A DNA stretch of 64,000 nt, taken from positions 64,218 through 128,217 of the forward strand of contig JACQXK010000001.1 of NCBI GenBank assembly GCA_016208765.1, written 5' to 3'. The DNA is from Candidatus Omnitrophota bacterium (GTDB lineage Bacteria > Omnitrophota > Gorgyraeia > Gygaellales > Profunditerraquicolaceae). Within the stretch, counting starts at the first letter, position 1. Every line of letters begins with the position of its first letter. The notes under the pieces are model-generated. The model worked only from the letters and a program-made list of their open reading frames with translations, had not been told where the DNA came from and did no database searches. Positions 1 to 33,039 of this stretch are shown here, piece after piece. A program made the position numbers and the translations under genes.

Positions 1-2438
1 ATATTAAGAATGCTTTACGCTATTTCGCCGAAGGTATTGGGTTATTCAGGACTGAACATATGTTTTACGGTGAAGGGAAAAAATCAAGAGAGGCGTTAGC
101 TCTTTTACGCGAAATGATTATTTTCCTGAAACAAGACGAACGCAGAGCGGCAACCCTAAAACAATTATTTCCTTATTTCAAAAATGATATTAAGGCTGCG
201 TTTAAGGAAATGAAGGGATTACCGGTTACGATTAGATTATTAGATCCGCCTTTACATGAATTCCTCCCGAATCCGGATAACAAAAAAGACAAGAAAGAAC
301 AGGAAAAGGCAGAACAGGAGTTAAAGGAACTATCAGAAAAACTGGGAGTTCCAGTAACAAAGATTCGCCAGATAACCAAGGATTTAAGTGAGGCAAATCC
401 GATGTTGGGCCTTCGCGGAGAGCGATTAGGCATAGTTTTCTCGGAAATAACTGAGATCCAAGTGAGAGCGATGTTTGAAGCTGCTGCGGAATTGATTATA
501 AAAAATAATACTGCTCCGCGCCTTGAAATTATGATTCCCTTAGTCAGTGAAGAAGGTGGGCTTAAAGACCAGAAAAAGATAGTTGAAAGAGTCCATGCTG
601 AGGTAGTAAAGAAATATGGACTGGAAAAGAAAAATAAAGAGCTGAAATATATGTTCGGCACGATGATTGAAACTCCTCGCGCGACAGCGATTGCCGGCAA
701 GCTTGCAGAGGATGCTGAATTTTTCTCCTTTGGTACTAATGACCTAACTCAGATGACTTTTGGTTATTCGCGCGATGATGCAGGCAGCTTTCTGCCTACT
801 TTTATTGAAAAGGAAATTCTACCTAATGATCCATTCGCGCAAGTAGACAAGGATGGAGTTGTTAAATTTATGAAAACCGCAGTTGATGATGGCCGTAAAG
901 TGCGCCGGAAACTAAAAGTAGGTATTTGTGGCGAACACGGGGGAGATCCGGATTCAATCAAGGAATTCCATGAGTTTCTTGATTATGTGAGCTGCTCAGC
1001 GTTTAGGGTGCCGCTTGCAATATGTGCCGCAGCTTGGGCTGAACTTGACTCTCCTCGCGGCGTGGTTCCTGCTGCACCGAGCGTACGCCTATCGTGGCAG
1101 GCAAGAGATAAATTACTGGGGATGATTTATTCAGTCACAACTGCCTTGAGTAGTGTTTGGGCAAAAATGCCTGTGGGAGATTTGCAGCGATCAGGAGAGG
1201 CTTTTAATTCTGTTATCGCCCTTAGTCATGTAGCGGTTCTATTGGAGGATAGTAAGAGTAAAGTAGACCTTCAGGAACTCTTTAGGACAATTGATGAGGA
1301 GTTATCCACCTTAGACAGGGTAATGAAACAGAGGATAAAGAATATTGGCAGAGAAGCTGCCAAGAATGACCCTGTGCTCAAACATTATTATACAGCTTTG
1401 GCGTCAATCAAAGGCATCAGGGCTGAAGTAGAGAAAATTATGGACAATAAGGGGATTCCTGCCATAGCCTCCAGCGCGGTGGAAAAAGCTTCCGCTGCAA
1501 AAGCAGAAACAGCCAGCTCAGCGCTTTTTAGGAACAACCCTGTGCCGGAAATCGGGGATGTCAGCAAATTTTCTAATTTAAAAGTCAATCCCAGCGGGAC
1601 CGCTGGAAGTTTTTCTGATATTAAAAGTTGGGACCTTGGTGGTGGTCGGAATTTTGATAAGGCTGTTGTTGGCGATTTGCATCGGACTGCTGATACTCTT
1701 ACATTTGAGTTCCGCCCTAAGGAGACTGTGGTAAGGACGACTCATAAGAAAGATTTTATCGGCAGCAAACCTACGGAGACTGAAGTTTTGGAAGCGAAAC
1801 TACCTGGTCAACACATTGTATCAATAACTACTAAAGAAATGCAAGGATCAAGTGAAGACGAAGAGAACCTATCGCTTGTTGTTGAGGTAACTCCTGAGTT
1901 TTTTGCTCAGCTTGGGCAGAAAGGAATCCCTCTGAACAATAAATTTACCCATACGGTACATAGCTATCCAGCAAATGATTATCCTTCCGTGATATCGTCT
2001 GCGCGTAACGTTGAATTCGTATCCGCAGGCACTGCCAGCAGCGCGGTAAAAGCCTCAAGCGCCATGCAAAAAGCTCCAGATACTACCGGCGGTATTGACT
2101 TCCGCGCGATGAACATCAAGTATCAAGCTATGGGTAGTTTTGCTAAGCTTGATTTGACTTTGCCGAAGTTGAGCAGGGTTGAATTGCAGAGTATGGATAT
2201 TGATAAGGAAATATTAAGTATTCAGCGTATGGCAAATAGTTCTATTGAGCCATCAGCAAAACGACTGGAAGAAGTTTTAGCAGCCTGTGTGCAAAAAGGA
2301 GAGCTTAATCAAAGAAGGGAAGCTTTAGCAGCTTGTGCTATGGATATCTGTCAGATACAGGAAATGCGAGCTACTGAAAGTTCTCCGGAGTTAAGAAGAG
2401 TAATAGTGTTACTTGACCAGATAAGTTCAGGGTCATAA
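1..2438 (+). CDS. ppdK: Pyruvate,phosphate dikinase, C-terminal part (5' truncated by window edge), continuing into a ~460-aa C-terminal extension of unknown function
   Basis: The frame reads through the window start (...GIGLFRTEHMFYGEG, the PEP-utilising TIM-barrel region). It carries the VGICGEHGGDP...YVSCSAFRVP motif that normally ends PPDK near aa ~330 of this ORF. The ORF then continues with no stop to 2438. Confidence 0.8.
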   Translation, partial: IKNALRYFAEGIGLFRTEHMFYGEGKKSREALALLREMIIFLKQDERRAATLKQLFPYFKNDIKAAFKEMKGLPVTIRLLDPPLHEFLPNPDNKKDKKEQEKAEQELKELSEKLGVPVTKIRQITKDLSEANPMLGLRGERLGIVFSEITEIQVRAMFEAAAELIIKNNTAPRLEIMIPLVSEEGGLKDQKKIVERVHAEVVKKYGLEKKNKELKYMFGTMIETPRATAIAGKLAEDAEFFSFGTNDLTQMTFGYSRDDAGSFLPTFIEKEILPNDPFAQVDKDGVVKFMKTAVDDGRKVRRKLKVGICGEHGGDPDSIKEFHEFLDYVSCSAFRVPLAICAAAWAELDSPRGVVPAAPSVRLSWQARDKLLGMIYSVTTALSSVWAKMPVGDLQRSGEAFNSVIALSHVAVLLEDSKSKVDLQELFRTIDEELSTLDRVMKQRIKNIGREAAKNDPVLKHYYTALASIKGIRAEVEKIMDNKGIPAIASSAVEKASAAKAETASSALFRNNPVPEIGDVSKFSNLKVNPSGTAGSFSDIKSWDLGGGRNFDKAVVGDLHRTADTLTFEFRPKETVVRTTHKKDFIGSKPTETEVLEAKLPGQHIVSITTKEMQGSSEDEENLSLVVEVTPEFFAQLGQKGIPLNNKFTHTVHSYPANDYPSVISSARNVEFVSAGTASSAVKASSAMQKAPDTTGGIDFRAMNIKYQAMGSFAKLDLTLPKLSRVELQSMDIDKEILSIQRMANSSIEPSAKRLEEVLAACVQKGELNQRREALAACAMDICQIQEMRATESSPELRRVIVLLDQISSGS

Positions 2439-2468
2439 GATATAGTTGTAGTATTTTGATAAAGTAAC

Positions 2469-2505
2469 AAAGAGGCGTTTTCTGTAAAATAGAAAACGCC
2501 TCTTT
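2469..2505 (+). terminator. Rho-independent terminator-like hairpin after ppdK (perfect 15-bp stem aaagaggcgttttct/agaaaacgcctcttt, 7-nt loop)
   Basis: A perfect inverted repeat seen directly in the sequence, 30 nt after the ppdK stop. T/A runs on both sides mean it could act in either direction. Confidence 0.6.
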
Positions 2506-2618
2506 AATTGTAGTCTAATATGGTGCGGGAGGAGGGAGTTTCCCGACGCTCGTTTTTGCTCGGTCGGGATCCCGCCTGCTATTAATTAGCTTGGCGGGAG
2601 AACTCTTGATAAATTTAG

Positions 2619-2700
2619 TGCGGGAGGAGGGAGTTGAACCCTCATGTCTTGCGACACTGGCTTCTGAGACCAGCGCGTCTGCCATTCCGCCACCCCCGCA
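2619..2700 (-). tRNA. tRNA-Leu (anticodon CAG), long variable arm
   Basis: The reverse complement reads GCGGGGGTGGCGGAATGGCAGACGCGCTGGTCTCAGAAGCCAGTGTCGCAAGACATGAGGGTTCAACTCCCTCCTCCCGCA. The acceptor stem pairs, the anticodon loop is CTCAGAA, the T-loop is GGTTCAACTCC, and the long extra arm is typical of Leu. The 3' end is CTA, not CCA. Confidence 0.8.
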
Positions 2701-2802
2701 AAAAGTAATTTAAAGTATAACTTAGCCTGCCTCATCTGTCAATTATAAAAGAATTGCTCCTCTTGGTTTTTGTTGGTATAATTATTTCAATTAGCTAATT
2801 AG

Positions 2803-2830
2803 GCTGGATTCCCGCTTTCGCGGGAATGAC
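2803..2830. repeat. Partial copy (one hairpin arm, gctggattcccgctttcgcgggaatgac) of the double-hairpin MITE-like repeat found in full at 41758 and 47541
   Basis: Near-identical to the 3' hairpin of the two full copies (ggattcccgcttacgcgggaatgac). It lies just upstream of the 2846 ORF. Confidence 0.6.
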
Positions 2831-2845
2831 ATAAGGGGTGCATAG

Positions 2846-3802
2846 ATGTTTTTGGAGTCATTTAAGATTACAAGTCTTGCCGTGCTGCAGAGTTTCATTT
2901 TGGGGGCAGTCGGCTATTTGTTAATGAAAAAGCAAATCCTTGGGCATGAAGGGCTTAGCACATTAAGCCGCTTGGTGGTTGAGGTAACTTTGCCGGTTTT
3001 AATTTTTTGCCAGCTGATCAAGGATTTTCGTTTTGATCTGTATCCAAATTGGTGGATTTTTCCTTTACTTAGTATCGCTATTACTGTTGCAGGTTTAATT
3101 TTTGGAGTAATATTTGTTGGATTTATAAAGGGCCAGCAGCATAAGTGGCAATTTTTGACTTTAGTGAGTTTTCAGAATTCAGGGTATCTGCCGCTTGCTT
3201 TAGTTGTGGCCATATTGCCTAAAGAAAGCGCTGCAGTTATTTTGACATATTTGTTTTTATTTCTTTTGGGATTTAATTTGCTGGTTTGGTCTGTGGGCGT
3301 GTATATGCTTTCGTTTCATGCTGTAAAGAAATTTGAATTGGGCACTTTGTTTAGCCCGCCGGTAATTGCGGTTTTGTTTAGTTTGGCATTGATTTTCTTT
3401 GGTTTAAATAAGTTTGTTCCGCTTACATTGCTAAAACCTTTGCGTATGATCGGCGATTGCACTCTGCCTTTGGCAATGTTTGTTGTCGGAGGTAATTTGG
3501 CTGCAGTGCGGCTTGAACAGATAAATAAACGGGCAGTAAGCTATATTGTTCTGGTAAAATTAATTATGCTTCCTATATTGGGATTGTGGCTGATCCTGAA
3601 ATTTAAAGCTCCCTATTTGATAGGGTTATTAATTTTAATTGAATTAGCAGTTCCTCCGGCGACTTCTTTGTCGGTAATTACCCGGCATTACAAGAAAGAA
3701 GATTTGCTGATTAGCCAAGGGGTATTTTTTGGACACATTATTAGCATCATTACTCTTCCGTTATTTTTAAGTATTTATTTTAGCTTATGCATGATAAAAT
3801 AA
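2846..3802 (+). CDS. AEC-family (auxin efflux carrier / malate permease-like) membrane transporter
   Basis: 318 aa and highly hydrophobic with about 10 predicted TM segments. The length and N-terminal organisation resemble the AEC/Mem_trans family. Confidence 0.5.
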   Translation: MFLESFKITSLAVLQSFILGAVGYLLMKKQILGHEGLSTLSRLVVEVTLPVLIFCQLIKDFRFDLYPNWWIFPLLSIAITVAGLIFGVIFVGFIKGQQHKWQFLTLVSFQNSGYLPLALVVAILPKESAAVILTYLFLFLLGFNLLVWSVGVYMLSFHAVKKFELGTLFSPPVIAVLFSLALIFFGLNKFVPLTLLKPLRMIGDCTLPLAMFVVGGNLAAVRLEQINKRAVSYIVLVKLIMLPILGLWLILKFKAPYLIGLLILIELAVPPATSLSVITRHYKKEDLLISQGVFFGHIISIITLPLFLSIYFSLCMIK

Positions 3803-4251
3803 CTATTCCAAGTATCAGTAACCGCAAGGCGCATCGGGATTATGAAATTTTAGAATCATTTGAATGCGGGATTGAATTAAAGGGCAGTGAAGTAAAAAGC
3901 TTGAGAGAGGGCAAAGCGAATTTAAATGACAGTTTTGCCCGTATAGATAAAGATGAAATTGTTCTGTTTAATTTGCATATAAGCCCTTATATAGAGGCGA
4001 GCTATTTGAATGTTGAGCCTGTGCGGCCAAGAAAGCTGCTGTTGCACAGGAAACAAATCTTGAGGCTCGCCGGGAGCCTTGCGCAAAAAGGACTGACCAT
4101 GGTGCCGCTTAAGATTTATTTCAACCAGCGCGGTTTTGCCAAGGTGGAATTAGCTCTTTGTAAAGGAAAGAAGTTGTATGATAAGCGCGAGGGCATAAAA
4201 AAGCGCGAAGAGGATTTGTCTTTGCGCAGGGTGATGAAGAATAGAAGATAG
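3787..4251 (+). CDS. smpB: SsrA-binding protein SmpB
   Basis: 154 aa. The NRKAHRDYEILESFECGIELKGSEVKSLR motif and a basic C-terminal tail are characteristic of SmpB. tmRNA follows immediately downstream. Confidence 0.9.
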   Translation: MHDKITIPSISNRKAHRDYEILESFECGIELKGSEVKSLREGKANLNDSFARIDKDEIVLFNLHISPYIEASYLNVEPVRPRKLLLHRKQILRLAGSLAQKGLTMVPLKIYFNQRGFAKVELALCKGKKLYDKREGIKKREEDLSLRRVMKNRR

Positions 4252-4291
4252 GTTGGAGTTTTTTCCAATAATGAAAAATAGCTGGAAATTT

Positions 4292-4687
4292 GGGGGTGAA
4301 AGGGTTCGACCTAAGTACATAGGGTAAGAGCAGCATGCCGCGGACGCGAGGTTAGCCGCGTTAACAATCCTTGCAAAAACTAAAAGCAAACACACCAGTG
4401 TTAAACCGGCTTGCAATGCCAGTAATGGCAATGCCAGCTGGCTGCTTAGTCACCCCTCACTAAGTGTAGGGGTGCCTCTACTCAGCTTGCCTACGGGCTG
4501 AAATAGAGCGCTAGTAGGATAGTCTCGCAGGGTTTGCCTTTGCATGCGGGATGAAATTCAAAAAGGCTGCGGCTTGCGCAATCTTGTTTAGCGGAGTGCG
4601 CAAGAGTAAGAATAAAAGATAAACTAAGCATGTAGCGGCTTTTATCAGATTGCTTGGGGACGGCGGTCCAATTCCGCCCACCTCCAC
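4292..4687 (+). ncRNA. ssrA: tmRNA (ssrA), one-piece
   Basis: The 5' end GGGGGTGAAAGGGTTCGAC is the tRNA-like acceptor/D-analogue. The 3' end GGACGGCGGTCCAATTCCGCCCACCTCCA has a T-arm GGCGG/CCGCC, and the acceptor CACCTCC pairs with the 5' GGGGGTG. An internal ...CAGCTGGCTGCTTAG (..LAA stop) is followed by a hairpin cacccct/aggggtg. The gene lies directly downstream of smpB. Confidence 0.85.
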
Positions 4688-4827
4688 TTAAATTTTCCGA
4701 CAAGGAAAATTTAAGTGGCACTCAAGCGAGCGTTAAACAGCCCGACAAGGGCTGTAGCGAGCGGAGTGCCACCAGGGCTAAGTGGATCCCAAAACAATGT
4801 GTTTTGAGATATTAAAACTAAATACAA

Positions 4828-5928
4828 ATGATTAAATCAAAATTAACTATATCTATCTTACGAATTACAAGTTATGTGTTACTGGTTACGGCTTTTATCG
4901 GTTGCGCTACTGTGCCCCAGAAGGAGCTTTTGACTGCTTATAATTTGAACGGCACAACTTATTATTCCTTAACAGATTTATGCAGCCTGAAAAATATTGA
5001 GTTAGAGCAGGATAAGTTTAATAATTCAATTATATTAACCAAGGATTCGCATCGTATTGTTTTAAAAGTTGGTGACAGTTTAGTGTTGGTAGATGACAGG
5101 GCAACTATGCTTAGTCATCCGGTTAAAATTCATAATGGTGCAGTTGTTGTTCCTGCCAGATTTAAGGAACAGGTTATTGACACTTTGTTTAAGCAAACAT
5201 GCCAGCTTTTAAGGCCGGGGTACTCTTTATCTAAAATCAGAAAAATCGTCATTGACGCCGGGCATGGTGGAAATGACCCGGGTGCAATTGGAAAGAATGG
5301 ATTACGGGAGAAGGATGTTAATTTGGATATTGCTCGTCGTCTTGCCGATATCCTGAAATGCCAAGGGGTGGATGTTGTTTTGGTGCGCTCATCCGATATA
5401 TTTGTGCCACTTCCAAGGCGTGTTGAAATTGCAAATAACTCCGGGGCGGATCTTTTTTTAAGCGTGCATTCTAATGCCAGTAAGTCACGGAGCCTAAGCG
5501 GATTTGAAGTTTATTATGTTGCTCCCAGTGTCAGCGATATCATACGCGCGAAGAGTTCAGCAAGAACATCAAAGCTAAATTTGAAAAATGCCTACTTTGC
5601 CAGCAGCTCACTTGATCTAAGAACGATTGTCTGGGATATGGTCTATACTTATTCACGCGCCGAGTCTATTAATTTATCCCGGGCTTTGTGTCAATCCGCC
5701 GGCGGTAATTTAGATACCCGCATAATTGGTGTTAAGAATGCGCGGTTTGCAGTTTTAAAAGGGGTAAGGATGCCTGCGGTTTTAATGGAGGTAGGTTTTG
5801 TTTCTAACCCTAACGAAGAGCGTTTATTAAAGACGAGTTCTTATCGGACAAAAATTGCGGAAAGCATTGCCGAAGGGCTTGCAAATTACGCACGGGATTC
5901 GGAGTTAATGGAGGCGCGCAATAAATGA
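4828..5928 (+). CDS. amiC: N-acetylmuramoyl-L-alanine amidase (Amidase_3, AmiC-like) lipoprotein
   Basis: It has a lipobox-like signal (LLVTAFIGCAT). The motifs IVIDAGHGGNDPGA...LFLSVHSNAS...PAVLMEVGFVSNPNEE match the Amidase_3 zinc-amidase signature. Confidence 0.85.
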   Translation: MIKSKLTISILRITSYVLLVTAFIGCATVPQKELLTAYNLNGTTYYSLTDLCSLKNIELEQDKFNNSIILTKDSHRIVLKVGDSLVLVDDRATMLSHPVKIHNGAVVVPARFKEQVIDTLFKQTCQLLRPGYSLSKIRKIVIDAGHGGNDPGAIGKNGLREKDVNLDIARRLADILKCQGVDVVLVRSSDIFVPLPRRVEIANNSGADLFLSVHSNASKSRSLSGFEVYYVAPSVSDIIRAKSSARTSKLNLKNAYFASSSLDLRTIVWDMVYTYSRAESINLSRALCQSAGGNLDTRIIGVKNARFAVLKGVRMPAVLMEVGFVSNPNEERLLKTSSYRTKIAESIAEGLANYARDSELMEARNK

Positions 5929-6716
5929 GGCCGATTGGAGTTTTTGATTCAGGCGTGGGCGGGTTGACTGTTGTTAAGGAATTGATCCATCAGCTCCCGC
6001 ACGAGGATATAGTTTATTTTGGTGATACTGCGCGCGTGCCTTACGGGATCAAATCAAGAGAAACAGTTATTCGTTTTTCCATTGAGAATATTTTATTTCT
6101 TCTTAAACAGGATGTGAAATTAATTTGTGTTGCCTGTAACACTGCTTCCAGTTTTGCTTTGCCGGTGATTAAGAATCATTTTAAAGTGCCTATCGTCGGG
6201 GTGATTAGCCCAGGAGTGCGCGAGGCGGTTTATGCCACGCAAAATAAAAGAATAGGGGTTATCGGCACCAAGGGCACCATTAAAAGTCGGACCTATGAAA
6301 TTGAAATTAATCAGCTTGAGCCGGAAGTCAAGGTTACTGCTGTTGCCTGCCCGTTGTTTGTGCCTTTTGTTGAAGAGGGGTGGCTTTCCGGGGATGTGGT
6401 TTTAGATGTTGCCCGTACCTATTTAAAGCCGCTAAAGGATGCCAGGGTGGATACTGTTATTTTAGGCTGCACGCATTATCCATTGCTTAGGCCGGTGATC
6501 AAGCAGGTGCTTGGCGAGAATGTAACCTTGATTGATTCTGCAAAACAGGTGGCTGTTGAGGTGAAAAAGATTTTGGGATCGGAGAATATTTTAAATACCA
6601 AGGGAAAAGGGAAGCATAGTTTTTACGTCAGTGATAATCCGGAGTGGTTTAGCGGTTTAGCAGAAAGGTTTTTAGGGAATTCTCTAAAAAAAAAAAAAAA
6701 GGCTGTTTCAGGATGA
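5925..6716 (+). CDS. murI: Glutamate racemase
   Basis: The motifs MRPIGVFDSGVGGLTV...CNTAS...GCTHYP are the MurI signature. Its start overlaps the amidase stop by 4 nt. Confidence 0.9.
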   Translation: MRPIGVFDSGVGGLTVVKELIHQLPHEDIVYFGDTARVPYGIKSRETVIRFSIENILFLLKQDVKLICVACNTASSFALPVIKNHFKVPIVGVISPGVREAVYATQNKRIGVIGTKGTIKSRTYEIEINQLEPEVKVTAVACPLFVPFVEEGWLSGDVVLDVARTYLKPLKDARVDTVILGCTHYPLLRPVIKQVLGENVTLIDSAKQVAVEVKKILGSENILNTKGKGKHSFYVSDNPEWFSGLAERFLGNSLKKKKKAVSG

Positions 6717-13124: not shown

Positions 13125-13202
13125 GGTGGTTGTAGCTCAATTGGTTAGAGCGCTAGACTGTGGCTCTGGAGGTTGCGGGTTCGATCCCCGTCAGCCACCC
13201 CA
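13125..13202 (+). tRNA. tRNA-His (anticodon GTG) with extra 5' G(-1)
   Basis: The sequence is GGTGGTTGTAGCTCAATTGGTTAGAGCGCTAGACTGTGGCTCTGGAGGTTGCGGGTTCGATCCCCGTCAGCCACCCCA. G-1 pairs with discriminator C73, the anticodon loop is CTGTGGC, and CCA is encoded. Confidence 0.85.
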
Positions 13203-13415
13203 TTTTTTCGCTATTGCATAGCTGCAAAATCGATCGTTGTGAGTAAATAGAGAGCAATGACTTTAACGCTTTCGCATCTCTTGATCTATATTTATATAGT
13301 CAAAATGGCTGTATCCCTTAAATACAATTTGACAAAAAAGAGGCAAAAGTGTATTTTAAAATCAAATCAGGAGTGGTATTGTTTGAAGGGGGAACTGCCA
13401 CGTAAAAATAATTAA

Positions 13416-13446
13416 AACCTTCGCTCACAAGGCGAAGGTTTTTTGT
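13416..13446 (+). terminator. Rho-independent terminator (aaccttcgc / gcgaaggtt stem + T6)
   Basis: A perfect 9-bp stem with a 6-nt loop followed by TTTTTTG. It lies 215 nt downstream of tRNA-His, upstream of the restriction-enzyme island. Confidence 0.7.
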
Positions 13447-13466
13447 TTACGAGAAAGGCAGGGTGT

Positions 13467-13619
13467 ATGTTAAGTAAAAAAGTAGAGCAGGATATAAAGG
13501 CTGTTTTAGATTATCTTTGGCATGATGAAAAAAGGCATTATCAAGAAAGTAAATATTGTAGTAAACATATTTTTAGAACTTTGGTAAGATTAGCAAAGAC
13601 TATCAAATATGAACATTAG
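13467..13619 (+). CDS. Small ORF (50 aa, MLSKKVEQDIKAVLDYLWHDEKRHYQESKYCSKHIFRTLVRLAKTIKYEH) translationally coupled to the DpnI-like gene
   Basis: The ORF is below the ORF-track length cutoff. It has an RBS-like aaaggcaggg before the ATG, and its stop TAG overlaps the downstream ATG (ATGAACATTAG). Function is unknown; it occupies the position where R-M controller or antitoxin-like genes sit. Confidence 0.35.
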   Translation: MLSKKVEQDIKAVLDYLWHDEKRHYQESKYCSKHIFRTLVRLAKTIKYEH

Positions 13620-14376
13620 TTTAGATAAGGAAGTGGCTAGATTTTATATTAGTTCTTCACAGAAAAGTAGAGTCTTAACGGAGGATTGGGTCAATAGAGA
13701 AGTTTTTTGCCCTGCCTGCGGTTATAATATTAGGCACTATGAAAATAATAGGCCAGTTGCTGATTTTTATTGTTCTAAGTGTAGCGAAGATTATGAATTA
13801 AAAAGCAAGAAGGATGGCATTGGAAATAAAATCGTTGATGGCGCCTATAGAACGATGATTGAGCGTTTACAAACTAATAAGAATCCTAATTTCTTTTTGT
13901 TAAATTATAATTTAAGAAGTTTTGAAGTTCTAAATTTATTAGTTATACCGAAGCATTTTTTTGTACCACATATAATTGAGGAAAGGAAACCACTCTCACA
14001 ATCGGCAAGGCGCGCAGGTTGGGTTGGTTGTAACATTTCTTTGCAGAATATCCCACAAACAGGCAAAATTTATTACATTAAAGACAAGCAGGTTGAATCA
14101 AAAGAAGAAGTCTTGAGGACTTGGAAGAAAACTCTATTCTTAAGGGAAGAAAAAGAAACCCCAGCAAAAGGATGGGTATTGGATATTATGAATTGTATTG
14201 ATAAACTTGGAAAACGGAGATTTAATCTTGAGGAAGTTTATTTCTTTAAGGAATTTCTAGGAGAAAAGCATCCGCAAAATAGGCATATTAAAGATAAGAT
14301 AAGGCAACAGTTACAATTTCTGAGAGATAAGGGGTATTTGAGATTTATTGCTAGGGGAGAATATGAGCTTACTTAA
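13609..14376 (+). CDS. dpnC: Type IIM methyl-directed restriction endonuclease, DpnI family (cleaves G(m6A)TC in characterised members)
   Basis: 255 aa, near the length of S. pneumoniae DpnI. There are long colinear conserved blocks: SQKSRVLTEDWVNREVFCPACGYN, ENNRPVADFYCSKCSEDYELKSKK, GAYRTMIERLQTNKNPNFF, RKPLSQSARRAGWVGCNI, ILNCIDK-like DIMNCIDKL, and HIKDKIRQQLQFLRDKGYL. These span the catalytic PD-(D/E)XK domain and the C-terminal winged-helix domain. No adjacent methyltransferase is present, as expected for a type IIM enzyme. Confidence 0.85.
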   Translation: MNISLDKEVARFYISSSQKSRVLTEDWVNREVFCPACGYNIRHYENNRPVADFYCSKCSEDYELKSKKDGIGNKIVDGAYRTMIERLQTNKNPNFFLLNYNLRSFEVLNLLVIPKHFFVPHIIEERKPLSQSARRAGWVGCNISLQNIPQTGKIYYIKDKQVESKEEVLRTWKKTLFLREEKETPAKGWVLDIMNCIDKLGKRRFNLEEVYFFKEFLGEKHPQNRHIKDKIRQQLQFLRDKGYLRFIARGEYELT

Positions 14377-14551
14377 AAATTTTGCAATAAGGTTAAGTCC
14401 TTTTTGGGCAAAAATCATTCTGCGAGTTAATTCATTCGCGCGGTTAAAAGATATGTGTCGTGGTTATAGTGAAGATCTAGAGAATTTTACTGAGCTTGTA
14501 TGGGAAGATGTCAAGAAATTGAGCTTTTGTGATAGAAAAACATACCTATAG
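14363..14551 (+). CDS. Small hypothetical protein downstream of the DpnI-like gene (DpnD-position ORF)
   Basis: The ORF-track frame runs 14348..14551. The likeliest start is the internal ATG at 14363 (MSLLKNFAIRLSPFW...). It has no recognisable domain. In the pneumococcal DpnI cassette a small gene of unknown function (dpnD) follows dpnC. Confidence 0.35.
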   Translation: MSLLKNFAIRLSPFWAKIILRVNSFARLKDMCRGYSEDLENFTELVWEDVKKLSFCDRKTYL

Positions 14552-14605
14552 TTTCAGCTTTGGTATGTTTAAGAAAATACTAAAAAGTTTATAACTAGGG
14601 AACGC

Positions 14606-15121
14606 ATGCCAATAACTTTCATTAAAATTCTCCGTAGTAAAAAAAGAAGGCGCACGGTGAGTGCGCATGTGGTAAAAGATGTTCTTATTGTAAGGGCTCC
14701 GGAGAGTATTGCGGAAAGCCGTTTAGAGAAGGTGATTACCGAGCTTAAAACAAAGATCGAACGGAAGCAGTTAAAAGAAGAATTGAATAAAGATGAAAGC
14801 CTTAGACAGAGGGCAAAGGAGTTTAATCAGCAGTATTTTGGAAATCAGCTTAACATTAACTCTATTGAATACGTTACAGATCAGATTTCTAAATTCGGCT
14901 GCTGTAATTTTCGCACCGGATGCATCCGTATTTCCCACCGAATAAGTTTTATGCCGCAGTGGGTAAGGGATTATGTGATTATTCATGAATTGGCGCATTT
15001 AGCAGTTCCTGATCACAGCAAGGCATTCTGGGAGGTAGTAAGCCGTTATAAGTTTGCTGAAAGAGCAAGGGGATATCTTATTGCCGCTGGAACACAAGAC
15101 ATTTTATATAATAAACTGTAG
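14606..15121 (+). CDS. DUF45 / YgjP-like (M48/WLM-like) zinc metallo-hydrolase
   Basis: 171 aa with the HELAHLAVPDHSKAFW HExxH-type motif in the spacing typical of YgjP/DUF45 proteins. This family is frequently found beside restriction and defence genes. Confidence 0.6.
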   Translation: MPITFIKILRSKKRRRTVSAHVVKDVLIVRAPESIAESRLEKVITELKTKIERKQLKEELNKDESLRQRAKEFNQQYFGNQLNINSIEYVTDQISKFGCCNFRTGCIRISHRISFMPQWVRDYVIIHELAHLAVPDHSKAFWEVVSRYKFAERARGYLIAAGTQDILYNKL

Positions 15122-15124
15122 AAT

Positions 15125-15215
15125 CAGGAGTTACAAAATAAATATTTAAAGATAGAAACCCGGATTTGTTTTGTAATCTTTTGATAATTAGAGGGTTGTA
15201 TAAAGCGTCTTATGT
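15125..15215. repeat. Copy A of a ~95-nt conserved AT-rich intergenic element (family also at 21304 and 22338)
   Basis: It is about 75-80% identical to 21304-21398 (GTTACAAAATAAATATTT...AGAAACCCGGATTTGTTTTGTAAT...GATAATTAGA...TATAAA). It contains the internal inverted repeat TTACAAAA...TTTTGTAA and the palindrome AAATATTT. It sits about 55 nt upstream of the SIR2-like gene. Confidence 0.7.
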
Positions 15216-15268
15216 TCTCTAATTCTCAAAAGACAGAAAATGTTAGGATTAATATTTAAGGGATAAAA

Positions 15269-16414
15269 ATGGCGATAATTGTTTTGGGTGCCGGAGCTAC
15301 AAGAGGGGTAAGGTTTGTAGAAAATAATATATGCAAGCCCCCTTTAAATGACGACTTCTTTAGCCAGTTGCAGCATATAAATAATGAGAAACATTTTAAG
15401 ACGATTGAGCAAGCAATAAAAGATGCAATTTCATTATATGGTAAGAATTTCAAAGTAACCATGGAAGAGTTCTTTACGCAAATTGAATTTTTTGTTAAGG
15501 TGCTTCCATACGCGAAAGAAAGACACGGACTAACAAGAGCGGACTTTAACAAAATAAAAGATAACTTTATAAAATCAATATCTGCTGTTTTTGAAGAGTC
15601 AATAACTCAAAAGACTTGTGAATACCATACAGAAATTGTTAAGGCTTTAGTCAAGGATTCTACAATAGTATCATTTAATTATGACTGCCTGATAGATTAT
15701 GCACTGAAAGAAGCAGGAGCGCAGAAATGGAATGCTAGGTATGGATATAGTTTTCCTCTGCGGAAGTATAGACTTATAGGAGATCCATTTTGGAGTTCCT
15801 CTTTATTACATCCACTGGCTACAAGGGGAGAGACTATTAAATTATTGAAATTACATGGTTCGCTTAATTGGCATATACTTAATAAAGGGAAAGGAAATAA
15901 AGGTTCTATAAGGCTTAAGCAACATCTTTATCAAAATGTAGGCACACCACAGTTTACTATAATGCCTCCAGAATGGAATAAGGAGTTATTAAAAGAGCCT
16001 GCTTTTGAAGAGATATGGAAAGAAGCAGCCAGGAGAATTAGAAGAGAGAAAATTTTTGTATTTATTGGATTTTCCTTTGTTCCGACAGATTTGTTTGCTG
16101 CCTCGTTGTTTCAATTAAGTATTGGTAAAGAAAAAATAAAGAAATTAATTATAGTAAATCCAGATAGAGAAGCTAGAAGAAGGACTAGGGCAGTTTTAAA
16201 TAGAGGTATTTCTGATAAAACTCTTATAGTCCAATTTGATACTTTTAAAGATTTTTCACGAGCAGAATTAAAAACTTTATTCTCTGAAAAACGAGATATT
16301 GGAAAATTTGAAAAAATCGAAGAAAGCAAAGCTCCTTTTGGAACAGATTCAAAAACCGTTACTAATAAAGATACGCTAAATTCTCCAGAAGCAGATAAAG
16401 AAAAAAGCTCTTAA
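15269..16414 (+). CDS. Stand-alone SIR2_2-type (defence-associated sirtuin-like NADase fold) protein
   Basis: 381 aa. It has the N-terminal glycine-rich IIVLGAGATRG, the SFNYDCLID block and KLHGSLNWH. These are the conserved blocks of the SIR2_2 (PF13289-like) family seen in ThsA/DSR/SIR2-HerA effectors. There is no Cys4 zinc-ribbon like canonical CobB sirtuins, and no SLOG/HerA/APAZ/STAND partner domain. Confidence 0.7.
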   Translation: MAIIVLGAGATRGVRFVENNICKPPLNDDFFSQLQHINNEKHFKTIEQAIKDAISLYGKNFKVTMEEFFTQIEFFVKVLPYAKERHGLTRADFNKIKDNFIKSISAVFEESITQKTCEYHTEIVKALVKDSTIVSFNYDCLIDYALKEAGAQKWNARYGYSFPLRKYRLIGDPFWSSSLLHPLATRGETIKLLKLHGSLNWHILNKGKGNKGSIRLKQHLYQNVGTPQFTIMPPEWNKELLKEPAFEEIWKEAARRIRREKIFVFIGFSFVPTDLFAASLFQLSIGKEKIKKLIIVNPDREARRRTRAVLNRGISDKTLIVQFDTFKDFSRAELKTLFSEKRDIGKFEKIEESKAPFGTDSKTVTNKDTLNSPEADKEKSS

Positions 16415-16689
16415 TGATGAAAGCATATACGATCAATTATGATTTAAAAGCTCCAAACAGAAATTACGACGGTCTTTTCGTCGAGATAAAAAAATCTCCG
16501 AAATGGTGGCATTTTCTTGAATCGACTTGGATTATTGCGACAGATGAAACTCCTAGCCAAATATGGAATAGATTGATAGCCAATTTGGACAAAAATGATT
16601 ATTTGTTAATTATTGAAGTAAAAGATAATGTTCAAGGGTGGCTTCCTAAAGAAGCATGGGATTGGATCCATGCTAATGTTCCGAGTTAG
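16414..16689 (+). CDS. 91-aa protein of unknown function, translationally coupled to the SIR2-like gene (TAATGATG overlap)
   Basis: The sequence is MMKAYTINYDLKAPNRNYDGLFVEIKKSPKWWHFLESTWIIATDETPSQIWNRLIANLDKNDYLLIIEVKDNVQGWLPKEAWDWIHANVPS. It is Trp-rich with no motif I can assign. Its start codon overlaps the SIR2 stop. Confidence 0.5.
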   Translation: MMKAYTINYDLKAPNRNYDGLFVEIKKSPKWWHFLESTWIIATDETPSQIWNRLIANLDKNDYLLIIEVKDNVQGWLPKEAWDWIHANVPS

Positions 16690-16759
16690 TTTGTTTAAAT
16701 AGAAATATAATTATTAAACTATTTTTCGCCTCTTTGAACTTTTTAATTTTTGTTCTTTC

Positions 16760-17650
16760 TTTGAGTAAGGCGGCAAAATTTGCCCGAACCAAATTTTTCC
16801 GGAGCCAAGCGTAGTTGTGAGGCGGGCGTGCCCGCACCACGCCCGCCTCAAAGGTTTAGTCTTAAAATGTTAATCGGGAGAGGCGCATTATGCCGCATCG
16901 CTAGTCTTACTCGTAGATTGCGGCATAGCGGACGAACCTCTCTAAAAAAATTTTGTTTTTAGCTTGTAACAGAGTGTCGGGTGAGGACGCTGTGGCTTGC
17001 GCCGCCCACACCCGGCGCAAGCCACAGCTGCGCCGAACACGCATAAAAATTAGCAAGAAGCGAGCGGCTCCCTAAAGGGACTTCTTCGGCCTGAAGTAAA
17101 CAAAGGTCTTGGTCGCCGCGAGCGCCATTGCGCGCGAGATGTGGGAGTCTCGCCATTCGCCGCTACCGCGGAGAAATGGCGGGACGGTGCATTCTTAGCT
17201 ATTTCCTTATGAACCAGCTTTACCCCGGTATTAGATACAAGCACCCAACGCTAACAGGATTTGCGTTGGTGTCCCGCTGGTGGGGGAAACGGCAAGAGGC
17301 GGGGCAAGCACCTTTGCCTATCGGAAGGCAAAGTATCCCGCTTTCTGCGGGAAGCATTAACATAGCGGCCGAGGTTCTTTCCGGGAAAAGATGTTGTTTG
17401 TGGGGGGCATTAGGAGATGTTTCATTAGGGTTTTACCCCTGTGGATTTACTTGTGGGGAGAGAATCGAACGCTATTTCGCAAAATTCTTTCGAATGGAAG
17501 AATAACAATGACTCCATTTTTTATTTTGAGGACATAAAGCCTCCCAATCTGTCGTAGAATCAACGAGTTGCGCCGGTTCTAACCTGTTGTGGAGGCTTTG
17601 TACGTCTGGGGCGTTGTGGTAGGTGGGAAACGGAAATAATTCATTGAACT
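16760..17650. other. ~0.9 kb GC-rich, ORF-free, heavily hairpinned block (candidate large structured ncRNA or element terminus); strand unknown
   Basis: Base composition is visibly GC-rich against an AT-rich genome. Only short Arg/Gly-rich six-frame ORFs overlap it on both strands. There are multiple long perfect stems: 16819-16849 (12 bp, gaggcgggcgtg/cacgcccgcctc), 16887-16925 (9 bp, tatgccgca/tgcggcata), and 16993-17030 (16 bp, gctgtggcttgcgccg/cggcgcaagccacagc). No tRNA, RNase P (P4) or SRP motifs were found. Confidence 0.4.
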
Positions 17651-18269: not shown

Positions 18270-18305
18270 AAGATATCTGGATTAAGTTCTAAATAAAGGA
18301 ATACA

Positions 18306-21008: not shown

Positions 21009-21303
21009 AAAACAGCTGTTTATCGTCAATATCCGGACAAAACGGACATTCCTGCTTCGCCTTCGGCTTAGCAGGATTTTGCTAGATAGAAGCTTAATGT
21101 GCTCAATTTCGCGAGGAATTATTTCTATAGATTCAGAATATTCTTGATATATTGAGGTATTACGCATATAATTAGGCTAATAAATTTGTAGAGGTTTTGC
21201 TTCGGCTCATAAGAGAGGGATCTTGATACTTTCTCAAGTTTTAACTTATATCTAAGTAACCGAAAATTGCTATTTCCTTAAAATAAATTGGGAATAGAGA
21301 GTT

Positions 21304-21398
21304 GAAGAATTAGTAATTACAAAGCAAATATTTTAAGCCAGAAAGCCGGACTTGTTTTGCAATTCTGTGATAATTAGAAGTTTATATAAATCTTCTGT
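21304..21398. repeat. Copy B of the ~95-nt conserved intergenic element
   Basis: It aligns with 15125-15215 (ATTACAAAGCAAATATTTTAAGCCAGAAAGCCGGACTTGTTTTGCAAT...GATAATTAGAAGTTTATATAAA). It lies about 60 nt upstream of the FGE-domain gene. Confidence 0.7.
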
Positions 21399-22337: not shown

Positions 22338-22397
22338 GTCAGGAATTACAAAACAAATATTTAGAAATAGAAAGTTGTGTTTGAATAGTTAGCAAGA
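22338..22397. repeat. Copy C (degenerate/partial) of the ~95-nt intergenic element
   Basis: GTCAGGAATTACAAAACAAATATTTAGAAATAGAAA matches copy A at 30 of 33 positions. The remainder is eroded. Confidence 0.55.
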
Positions 22398-22506
22398 AGC
22401 CAGCCGTCCAAGGCTGACGGATCGGCTTGGTTATTTCCCTCCGTAAATATTAATTTCCAACTTAATCTTAAGATTGTCTTGACATAGGGCCAGTGTTAAT
22501 GTACAC

Positions 22507-32925: not shown

Positions 32926-33039
32926 TTTCGCAGAAAGCGAACACCCGCCAATCCGCCCAGAAGGGCGCACTTGGCAACCTTTTTTGCCAAGGTGCGATAT
33001 GGAGAGGTGTATTATATCAGAAGTAGAGATAACTAATCT

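Follow-up and report, generated by a model that had tools for sequence, protein, structure and literature searches.

GOLLD and ROOL are large, ornate RNAs, each represented by an Rfam family, that are associated with prophages and often lie near tRNA genes. Few large structured noncoding elements are known, and the discovery of each new class has led to new biology. A second point of reference is the integration-dependent immunity of mycobacteriophages, wherein the phage attachment site (attP) lies inside an open reading frame (ORF) and integration changes the C terminus of the encoded protein; the gene concerned is that of the repressor, and the enzyme is a tyrosine integrase. Here we describe E, an unannotated family of modular, hairpin-rich noncoding elements of 0.4 to 0.9 kb. 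One copy occupies positions 16700 to 17522 of a 64,000-nt stretch of DNA from a Candidatus Omnitrophota bacterium (contig JACQXK010000001.1 of assembly GCA_016208765.1, positions 64,218 to 128,217; this whole stretch is called the window). Comparison of many copies indicates that E is conserved, modular, and under selection for hairpins with constant loops, and places it at the recombination end of defense-gene islands at tRNA-His. The window copy closes an island that carries DpnI and a SIR2 pair and from which the recombinase has been lost.

The region was first singled out in a sequence-only reading, which described 16760 to 17650 as a GC-rich, ORF-free, hairpin-dense block. This description holds. 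GC content is 0.54 to 0.55 across 16800 to 17400 in 300-nt windows, with a 200-nt maximum of 0.60, and compares with about 0.33 in the flanks and a mean of 0.40 for the 64 kb. Each of the six frames of the block contains 10 to 18 stop codons per 329 codons, which is close to the random expectation at this composition (about one stop per ~25 codons, estimated by hand). The longest stop-free stretch measures 136 codons, and none of the seven longest (58 to 136 codons) reaches the Pfam cutoff. On both strands, the folding energy goes beyond that of dinucleotide shuffles (z = −4.5 and −4.6); most of this excess comes from 16760 to 17050, and 17050 to 17650 gives a z of only about −2. The conserved element itself is 16700 to 17522, with GC ranging from 0.52 to 0.60, and the last ~125 nt are other DNA: positions 17524 to 17650 comprise a recombinase gene remnant, ~30 nt without assignment, and, from 17644, the region upstream of engB that is common to relatives.

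The long stems reported for the block all exist, at coordinates that had been a few bases off. Perfect stems of 13 bp (previously counted as 12), 9 bp, and 16 bp form at 16818–16830/16838–16850, 16889–16897/16919–16927, and 16989–17004/17013–17028, and the last can indeed be extended through flanking GTGTCGG/CCGAACAC pairs. Eight perfect hairpins with a stem of at least 10 bp are present in the whole 64 kb, and the only two with a GC content of at least 0.75 are both inside the block. By our own rough estimate, 900 nt would contain a perfect 16-bp inverted repeat by chance ~1e-6 times.

Because spurious ORFs are often called on GC-rich noncoding DNA, we used the 136-codon stop-free stretch as a phmmer query against 1.8 billion representative proteins. 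The search returned six small "proteins," each of them a spurious ORF called on a homologous stretch of DNA, wherein short common motifs are separated by spacers of varying length and by frame-breaking indels. The contigs that carry them (L093–L097) match the block as DNA in several pieces and contain the same hairpins with different stem sequences. A metagenome scan with the core of motif A, GCTTTACCCSGGTATTA, retrieved at least 120 stretches, and blastn identified further block parts in 76 of 128 loci; these ~100 instances of E, whose modules are 75 to 95% identical, constitute a sample drawn through motif A, and the counts are biased towards copies that keep this motif. All relatives are metagenomic, and every source bearing a taxon name is Omnitrophota. 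Module number varies between copies: L097 has three A units, L172 is devoid of hairpins H1 and H4 and of motif B, and in some copies an H1-type hairpin replaces hairpin H2. The window contains one full copy and no second one, several other contigs contain two or three, and many copies lie at contig ends. The Logan assembly of SRR12113406 breaks inside E, where contigs L002 and L003 share a 30-nt overlap at the motif A end (17237–17266), and the assembly of SRR12113402 runs through the element; repeated modules or strain variants may account for the break.

The suggestion that the block might belong to the GOLLD, ROOL, or HEARO class, or to another Rfam family, was not borne out. At the gathering threshold, Rfam 15 models detect only one tmRNA and four tRNAs in the window, all outside the block. 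When the block was searched at E-values up to 10, only chance-level fragments were recovered (best score 17.8 bits, against a threshold of 80), and twelve other family members gave no match at E-values up to 1. By covariance-model score, E is thus not a member of GOLLD, ROOL, HEARO, OLE, RNase P, tmRNA, group II introns, the int-alpA and DUF3800 motifs, or others, and nothing points to the ribozyme that had also been considered. Phage and plasmid collections contain no blastn match to the block in distant mode. Among viral contigs, the H4 palindrome has no matches and motif A has three, which we attribute to chance because they show no further similarity. Two recent preprints on Omnitrophota genomes mention variable loci rich in recombinase and restriction-modification (R-M) genes, and no E-like element.

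These data bear on whether the block might be decayed coding sequence or random foreign GC-rich DNA without function, as could befit a horizontally acquired island with a recombinase remnant next to it. A protein-coding gene or pseudogene is rejected on the random stop density in six frames, the lack of a Pfam match, and the nature of the database "homologs," which are spurious ORFs of 53 to 118 aa with frame-breaking indels. The conservation of ~100 copies with 75 to 95% identical modules and compensated stems refutes both decay and functionless foreign DNA, and we give this explanation almost no credence.

Selected structure is evident in three hairpins, H1, H2, and H4, that present the loop CCCGCAC(C) on long perfect stems, so that this loop appears three times per copy. 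In the window, all parts of E are on the + strand. Family alignment defines a 5′ leader (16700–16770; TTCGCC.CTTTGAA..TTTTTGTTCTTTC) and, together with a loop census, the adjoining H1 (16771–16801; loop CCCGAAC), which has one mismatch relative to other copies. H2 (16818–16850) has a 13-bp perfect stem and the loop CCCGCAC; its strands, GAGGCGGG/CCCGCCTC, differ from those of most copies in the family by a compensated change from G-C to A-T. H4 (16974–17040) combines the 16-bp perfect stem (16989–17028) and loop CCCACACC with the outer GTGTCGG/CCGAACAC pairs. Across the family, 14 distinct stems occur beneath CCCGCAC and fall into two unrelated sequence classes (GGGGCGGGCGTG-type and GGCAAAATTTG-type), against 0 to 2 for four control loops of the same composition. 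At the H4 position alone, other copies carry at least seven different, fully complementary stems of 11 to 17 bp. A double-stranded DNA site would be expected to keep its sequence, and the combination of constant loops with freely changing stems therefore suggests that the hairpins are actually extruded.

Between H2 and H4 lies an H3-type domain (16877–16943, with a U-rich linker to 16960) that has an outer helix GGGAGAGG/CCTCTCT, an inner helix (16889–16897/16919–16927), a conserved AGCGGACGAA, and the linker AAAAAAATTTTGTTTTT. We evaluated a hand-set structure of 15 pairs on a 21-sequence alignment (A3), with partners slid by 1 to 3 columns as the control. In this test, 84.9% of cells are paired, versus 37 to 49% in the slid controls, and the covariation score of 0.177 compares with 0.110 in shuffles, none of 500 of which reaches 0.177. 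Pair switches include GC to CG, AU to CG, and GC to AU. RNAalifold applied to a plain MAFFT alignment of H2 plus H3 yielded a poor structure, which reflects the presence of an H1-type hairpin in place of H2 in some copies, and the hand-set structure on the shorter alignment was used instead. Imperfect alignment of the variable modules lowers pair counts and does not raise them. A conserved structure is thus supported, in that homologous copies exist and their stems are compensated.

The 3′ half of the element is built in a similar manner. The conserved 19-mer TTAGCAAGAAGCGAGCGGC (17050–17068) follows the H4 region, and variable hairpins from 17069 onward precede hairpin P_a (17147–17157/17175–17185), whose stems differ between copies with pairing kept. 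Motif A (17185–17240) is the most conserved stretch of the family in an alignment of 67 distinct copies. It is followed by hairpin h_a (17241–17278), a second H3-type domain (~17288–17400) that includes h_b (17312–17333), h_c (17336–17352), and motif B (17361–17400), and a degenerate second A (17405–17447). The modules within 17241 to 17447 match many loci at 84 to 97% by blastn and were delimited with alifold and its pair types. In P_a, h_b, and h_c alike, pairing is maintained despite changed sequence, and extra hairpins are inserted in their loops. Module C (17453–17510, from family alignment) leads into the terminal core ACTCCATTTTTT (17511–17522), which is the family ..GGACCCCATTTT with one substitution, and the family-wide conserved boundary falls exactly at this core.

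Two fragments with E-type features are found outside E in the window. Positions 22389 to 22419 (+) resemble the TTAGCAAGAAGC.. motif plus a hairpin, and an intergenic gap at 32929 to 33010 (−) contains hairpins of the h_b-like, CGCCC/GGGCG, and h_c-like kinds, with an intrinsic terminator in the same orientation behind them.

All complete copies of E terminate in ..GGACCCCA, that is, ..GGA(C/A)CCCCA followed by an A/T run, which is a copy of the tRNA-His 3′ end. Among 30 different E 3′ ends for which the downstream sequence is long enough to compare, every one shows a sequence switch precisely at the core. At 18 of these, the switch is at the exact base to the C-terminal codons of a recombinase gene on the opposite strand; at one it is to tRNA-His itself in inverted orientation, and at the remaining 11 to unrelated DNA. 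A protein of ~480 aa with Resolvase, Recombinase, and Zn_ribbon_recom domains is encoded within a few hundred nucleotides of the E 3′ end at 32 loci. It is a large serine recombinase, and its named homologs are almost all from Omnitrophota. At five loci (L217, L110, L161, L132, and L221), the recombinase ORF ends inside the tRNA-His gene and overlaps the tRNA 3′ end by 12 to 38 nt. Its ending ..KWGG* is encoded by the reverse complement of tRNA-His ..GCCACCCCATTT, and therefore the E end copies the tRNA-His 3′ end, with the crossover core located inside the recombinase ORF. Attachment sites of serine recombinases measure some 40 to 50 bp, with imperfect dyad symmetry about the crossover and a core common to both partner sites. 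Viewed as such a site, the last 12 to 15 nt of E, which match the tRNA-His 3′ end, are a candidate, and ~800 nt of E are left unexplained by this match.

Three arrangements of tRNA-His, recombinase, and E were found at the tRNA-proximal junction. In L200, tRNA-His and E stand face to face with 5 nt between inverted 15-nt cores, forming a 35-bp palindrome, and there is no recombinase. In L132, L217, L110, and L161, the recombinase gene lies between tRNA-His and E and points at the tRNA. L222 has tRNA-His, recombinase, and E in mirror symmetry with the recombinase pointing at E, and the same convergence is seen in L192 and L150, on contigs without tRNA-His. Depending on orientation, the recombinase C terminus reads ..KWGG* (inside tRNA-His) or ..GSRYSRNRIKF* (inside E), and in the convergent arrangement the last ~40 nt of the gene overlap module C. 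Every state that contains the recombinase also has an inverted duplicate of its last 45 to 70 codons on the other side. Given both orientations and the inverted C-terminal duplicates, the recombinase cassette looks like an invertible, self-inverting unit, and the E end is the mirror partner of the tRNA end.

The window conforms to this pattern with its recombinase gene reduced to a stump. The tRNA-His gene (13126..13202, +; ARAGORN and Rfam tRNA) has the 3′ end and T-run ACCCCATTTTTT (13197–13208), which the window core ACTCCATTTTTT matches at 11 of 12 positions. A recombinase C-terminal remnant of 34 codons (APDVQSLHNRLEPAQLVDSTTDWEALCPQNKKWS; 17511..17612, −) begins at the core and is 91% identical to P0247 by blastx. 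Five homologs of the remnant, P0247 to P0251, are recombinase C-terminal variants; P0250 aligns with recombinase residues 444 to 464 and ends KKWGG* inside a tRNA-His gene, as full recombinases do. A tblastn search of the 64-kb window with one full recombinase detects nothing besides this remnant. An assignment of the tail at 17524 to 17612 as a transposase fragment, taken from L130, was rejected, as the database matches are to the recombinase C-terminal variant. The sequence order indicates E, core, recombinase stump, ~30 nt, and host DNA from 17644; possible histories include loss of the recombinase gene by deletion and tandem accretion with subsequent decay. L130 itself carries, at 1860 to 1975, a lone E end plus recombinase tail that is 92% identical to window positions 17520 to 17595 and has no E body, and a separate partial E (A, B, and C) at 2420 to 2700, 500 nt downstream. 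Thus, the core plus tail can occur alone.

The sequence-only reading had offered the recombination end of an integrated element as another possibility, and this has good support: the last bases of the block copy the tRNA-His 3′ end, a serine-recombinase remnant adjoins, and the block is the distal end of a 4.4-kb tRNA-His island that has no counterpart in the closest relative. As determined with blastn and tblastx of L006 and L004 against the window, with junction sequences, and with Pfam and PADLOC, the island (13213..17643, +) replaces ~95 nt of L006, the closest relative, where the order is tRNA-Arg, a DUF748 gene, tRNA-His, ~95 nt, and engB. L006 and L004 are metagenome-assembled genomes of Candidatus Omnitrophota with 89 to 91% nucleotide identity in engB, and similarity is lost exactly at window position 17644. 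The block is absent upstream of engB in L004, L005, and L006. The left junction (13211–13214) is 9 to 12 nt beyond the tRNA end, outside the core. In L004, ~5 kb (1177–6144) are inserted between engB and a PIF1-type helicase gene, which are adjacent in the window (18275–18295), and hence a second variable spot exists beside engB.

The island contains a small RNA (sRNA)-like module, DpnI, a YgjP-like peptidase gene, SIR2_2 with a 91-aa partner, E, and the recombinase remnant. L172, also from Omnitrophota, is syntenic with the window (tRNA-Pro, tRNA-Arg, DUF748, tRNA-His), and its island has the same first module and a compact E at the far end around different cargo, namely a TdeIII R-M pair, a TPR protein, and a DUF6338 protein. 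E is therefore an end-piece of the island type and not of the cargo. Where the genes adjoining E can be named, they are always defense or addiction genes: type I R-M with DUF3800 and RadC in L126, where three E copies separate such gene blocks; type III R-M, GmrSD, and a further methylase in L150; a type I R subunit, HEPN, and an MNT/HEPN pair in L220; TdeIII R-M in L172; and DpnI and SIR2 in the window. R-M of types I, II, and III is thus represented among the related islands, alongside GmrSD and HEPN/MNT.

The sRNA-like module (13329..13449, +) lies at the tRNA-proximal end of the island. It consists of TTGACA-17-TATTTT, a hairpin GTGGTA..TGCCAC with the conserved loop TGTTTGAAGGGGGAAC, and an intrinsic terminator (13414–13442) plus T-run, and it is 86 to 92% identical in eight E-bearing loci, where it follows an XRE repressor gene or tRNA-His. 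It has no Rfam match at the gathering threshold, the more permissive E-value search having covered the block only. Duplex energies between this module and E are within those of shuffles at five of six loci (z = +0.1 to −1.8); L208 gives z = −2.5 at a site not common to the other loci.

The SIR2_2 gene (381 aa) and the overlapping 91-aa gene (15269–16689, +) constitute a conserved two-gene module in which the partner measures ~95 aa in homologs. SIR2 homologs number 1023 at E-values up to 1e-5. Every contig examined (L084–L092) also encodes the small partner; a 64-aa XRE gene precedes the pair in L086 to L092. PADLOC gives only generic SIR2 matches for the pair, and the small protein has no family. 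These contigs, including those of P0002 and P0004 (69% identical), carry no E-like sequence downstream, and thus the idea that E co-occurs with the SIR2 pair is refuted for the close homologs examined. A promoter-like intergenic repeat, ..TTACAAA..AAATATTT.AAG..AGAAA.CCGGA.TTGTTTTG.., is found at window positions 15117–15210, 21303–21396, and 22340–22375. The copies that precede the SIR2 gene and an FGE-sulfatase gene share 79% identity over 94 nt, and the third, partial copy follows the sulfatase gene.

What E does at this position was considered from its strand and transcription signals. Upstream of E and on its strand, a TTGAC(A/T) −35 box with a spaced −10 is present in ~12 of 28 copies, mostly those divergent from an XRE repressor gene, and in L180/L203, L162, and L144 the core is followed by an intrinsic terminator of the same orientation. 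Such promoters and terminators are consistent with a free-standing, trans-acting ornate noncoding RNA, carried as island cargo in the way GOLLD and ROOL are carried in prophages, with its position at the attachment (att) core being incidental. The size of E, its GC-richness in an AT-rich genome, its nested multi-domain architecture with covarying stems and constant loops, and its location near a tRNA in a mobile island are all consistent with such an RNA. Its module number varies widely (0.4 to 0.9 kb, with copies devoid of H1, H4, or B), which is unusual for one defined fold; its 3′ boundary matches the recombination core to the nucleotide wherever a copy is complete, and a strand-specific wobble signal is missing. 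We regard a trans-acting RNA as rather unlikely.

Orientation provides a further constraint. Among 19 large loci that were mapped, E is never convergent with its upstream neighbor, and it follows cargo operons, in the same orientation as they, in the window, L172, L126, L150, L220, L180, L159, L161, L155, L206, and L122. This placement, along with recombinase genes convergent on E at 18 of 30 ends, a mosaic architecture, and the presence elsewhere in the 64 kb of smaller groups of these hairpins ahead of a terminator, could reflect a transcript boundary block at the 3′ ends of cargo operons that stops or stalls read-through into the convergent recombinase gene or into host genes and protects cargo mRNA from 3′ exonucleases, like bacterial interspersed mosaic elements and repetitive extragenic palindromes (BIME/REP). 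Such a barrier would have no use for constant loops or for the long conserved single-stranded motifs A, B, and C, and at least six loci have E divergent from an XRE operon and leading into the recombinase gene, not behind cargo. When H1, H2, and H4 were examined as intrinsic terminators, no T-run was found on either strand and the terminator scan reported none; the corresponding transcripts would lack U-runs. We regard a boundary block as quite unlikely.

Whether the folded form is RNA or DNA is a related matter. A purely DNA-based E could be a palindromic repeat mosaic of the REP/BIME/BOX type, or a mobile element that is non-autonomous, accumulating at island junctions, or it could provide cruciform or single-strand hairpin sites for recombination or replication. 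Its perfect Watson–Crick stems, the equal stability of both strands, and the equal numbers of G·T and A·C among mismatches agree with this explanation, as do its multi-copy, modular nature, its frequent location at contig ends where assemblies break, the dispersal of module fragments in the window, and the resemblance to a serine-recombinase site of the palindrome in L200, of which the terminal 15 nt of E make up half. The wholesale replacement of stems beneath constant loops points instead to extruded hairpins, as double-stranded binding sites keep their sequence. Orientation relative to neighboring genes is strictly kept, and one full copy in 64 kb is below REP-type density. No rolling-circle Rep, relaxase, or conjugation genes are among the neighbors examined (window, L126, L150, L172, and L220), and a single-stranded DNA stage is consequently without support in these islands; sso/ssi/Frpo-type origins or promoters were rejected on the same absence. 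We consider a DNA-only role unlikely, and it seems to us somewhat the better supposition that E works as RNA rather than as DNA hairpins. RNA is favored by the promoters and terminators described above, by the terminator behind the hairpin cluster at 32929 to 33010, by the lack of convergence between E and its upstream neighbors in the mapped loci, and by the absence from the examined islands of genes for a single-stranded DNA lifestyle.

The reading that we prefer is that E is a structure-dependent, probably transcribed arm beside the att site of recombinase-mobilized defense islands. Its function is deduced from position and conservation, and we hold this reading tentatively, at nearly an even chance. 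The working form of E would be a folded single strand, most likely an RNA whose transcription proceeds in the direction of the core. That transcription could start at a divergent promoter under XRE control or reach E from the cargo operon by read-through. The constant CCCGCAC loops on freely varying long stems may be contact points for a protein. In cis, E could serve as an accessory arm of the recombination site of the island, and it might mark the cassette end, control a convergent or downstream recombinase gene, or both. A role as an accessory arm in cis would explain why E is kept in islands that have no recombinase.

Several observations weigh against this reading. In the promoter scan, the opposite strand yields just as many sites, so that the scan does not discriminate, and no convincing promoter accompanies the copy in the window. 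Tests for RNA-specific wobble pairing are of little help: long hairpins with a single mismatch have seven G·T and seven A·C, the H3 domain leans only mildly to G·U (23, versus 14 A·C), and H4 folds alike on both strands (−35.8 versus −35.4 kcal/mol). The long stems are perfect Watson–Crick duplexes, which also fits selection on DNA palindromes. The bias of the sample towards motif A must be kept in mind as well. Lastly, according to PMC1470463, ~50-bp sites without an accessory arm are enough for serine recombinases, and a cis role for 800 nt would thus lack precedent.

A bolder version is that E plus its core forms the structured recombination site of a serine-recombinase cassette system, wherein defense cassettes, each terminated by a folded E, are captured and shuffled at tRNA-His and E, in the form of RNA or of extruded hairpins, is recognized by, or guides, the recombinase via its CCCGCAC loops. 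We judge this improbable. Pairing of the CCCGCAC loop with the tRNA-His T-arm was considered and rejected: it fits the window (TTGCGGG), and L217 combines a CGCGAG T-arm with CCCCCAC loops, such that the two do not covary between hosts.

With ~100 copies, clear modules, and compensated helices, the family comes from a phylum without a cultured model organism, for which it offers a sequence marker of defense islands. Its position is unusual, in that E stops precisely, to the nucleotide, at the crossover core of a large serine recombinase, mirrors the tRNA-His end across a cassette that appears in two orientations, and is kept without the enzyme. Large serine recombinases are valued genome-engineering tools that are thought to need only short sites, and an accessory element or regulatory RNA would be of practical interest if E proves to be one. 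Integron-like or RNA-assisted action, if true, would be new for these enzymes.

Each of the known systems resembles E in part. Like GOLLD and ROOL, E is several hundred nucleotides long, GC-rich relative to its host, made of many nested helices, and located in mobile DNA near tRNA genes, with no known partner gene product. It differs from them in having no covariance-model match, in its variable repeated modules, in ending exactly at a recombination core, and in its tie to a serine recombinase. Integron attC sites share with E the association with a recombination site, the location at a cassette 3′ end, and, as it seems for E, the recognition of structure over sequence, as stems vary and pairing is kept; several cargo-plus-E units in a row beside a recombinase, as in L126, extend this likeness. 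An attC site is 60 to 140 nt in length, folds as single-stranded DNA, and is used by a tyrosine recombinase (the integrase IntI, encoded next to attI), whereas E has 400 to 900 nt and many domains and accompanies a large serine recombinase. On the basis of E length and of the Resolvase/Recombinase/Zn_ribbon_recom domains of the adjacent enzyme, E was not classed as attC, the attC boxes (R″/L″ and L′/R′) not having been searched for.

BIME/REP of enterobacteria and BOX elements of pneumococci are likewise mosaics of short palindromic modules that vary in number and order, sit at operon ends co-oriented with transcription, and recur as single modules elsewhere. Those elements are shorter than 300 nt and have hundreds of dispersed copies, whereas the long conserved motifs of E (A, B, and C) are unique and its link to the att core is fixed. 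When examined for such behavior, E is modular and its dispersal is weak, with one full copy and two fragments (22389–22419 and 32929–33010) in 64 kb. The bridge RNA of IS110 provides another parallel, since XRE-linked E copies lie between a promoter and a recombinase gene; here the enzyme is of the serine and not of the DEDD type, a downstream recombinase is missing from many E copies, and the loops of E show no sign of pairing with target or donor DNA. Finally, the E system resembles integration-dependent immunity in placing the crossover core inside an ORF, such that the C terminus becomes ..KWGG* or ..GSRYSRNRIKF* according to the junction. In the mycobacteriophages it is the repressor that is changed, by way of a tyrosine integrase, whereas in the E system it is the recombinase itself.

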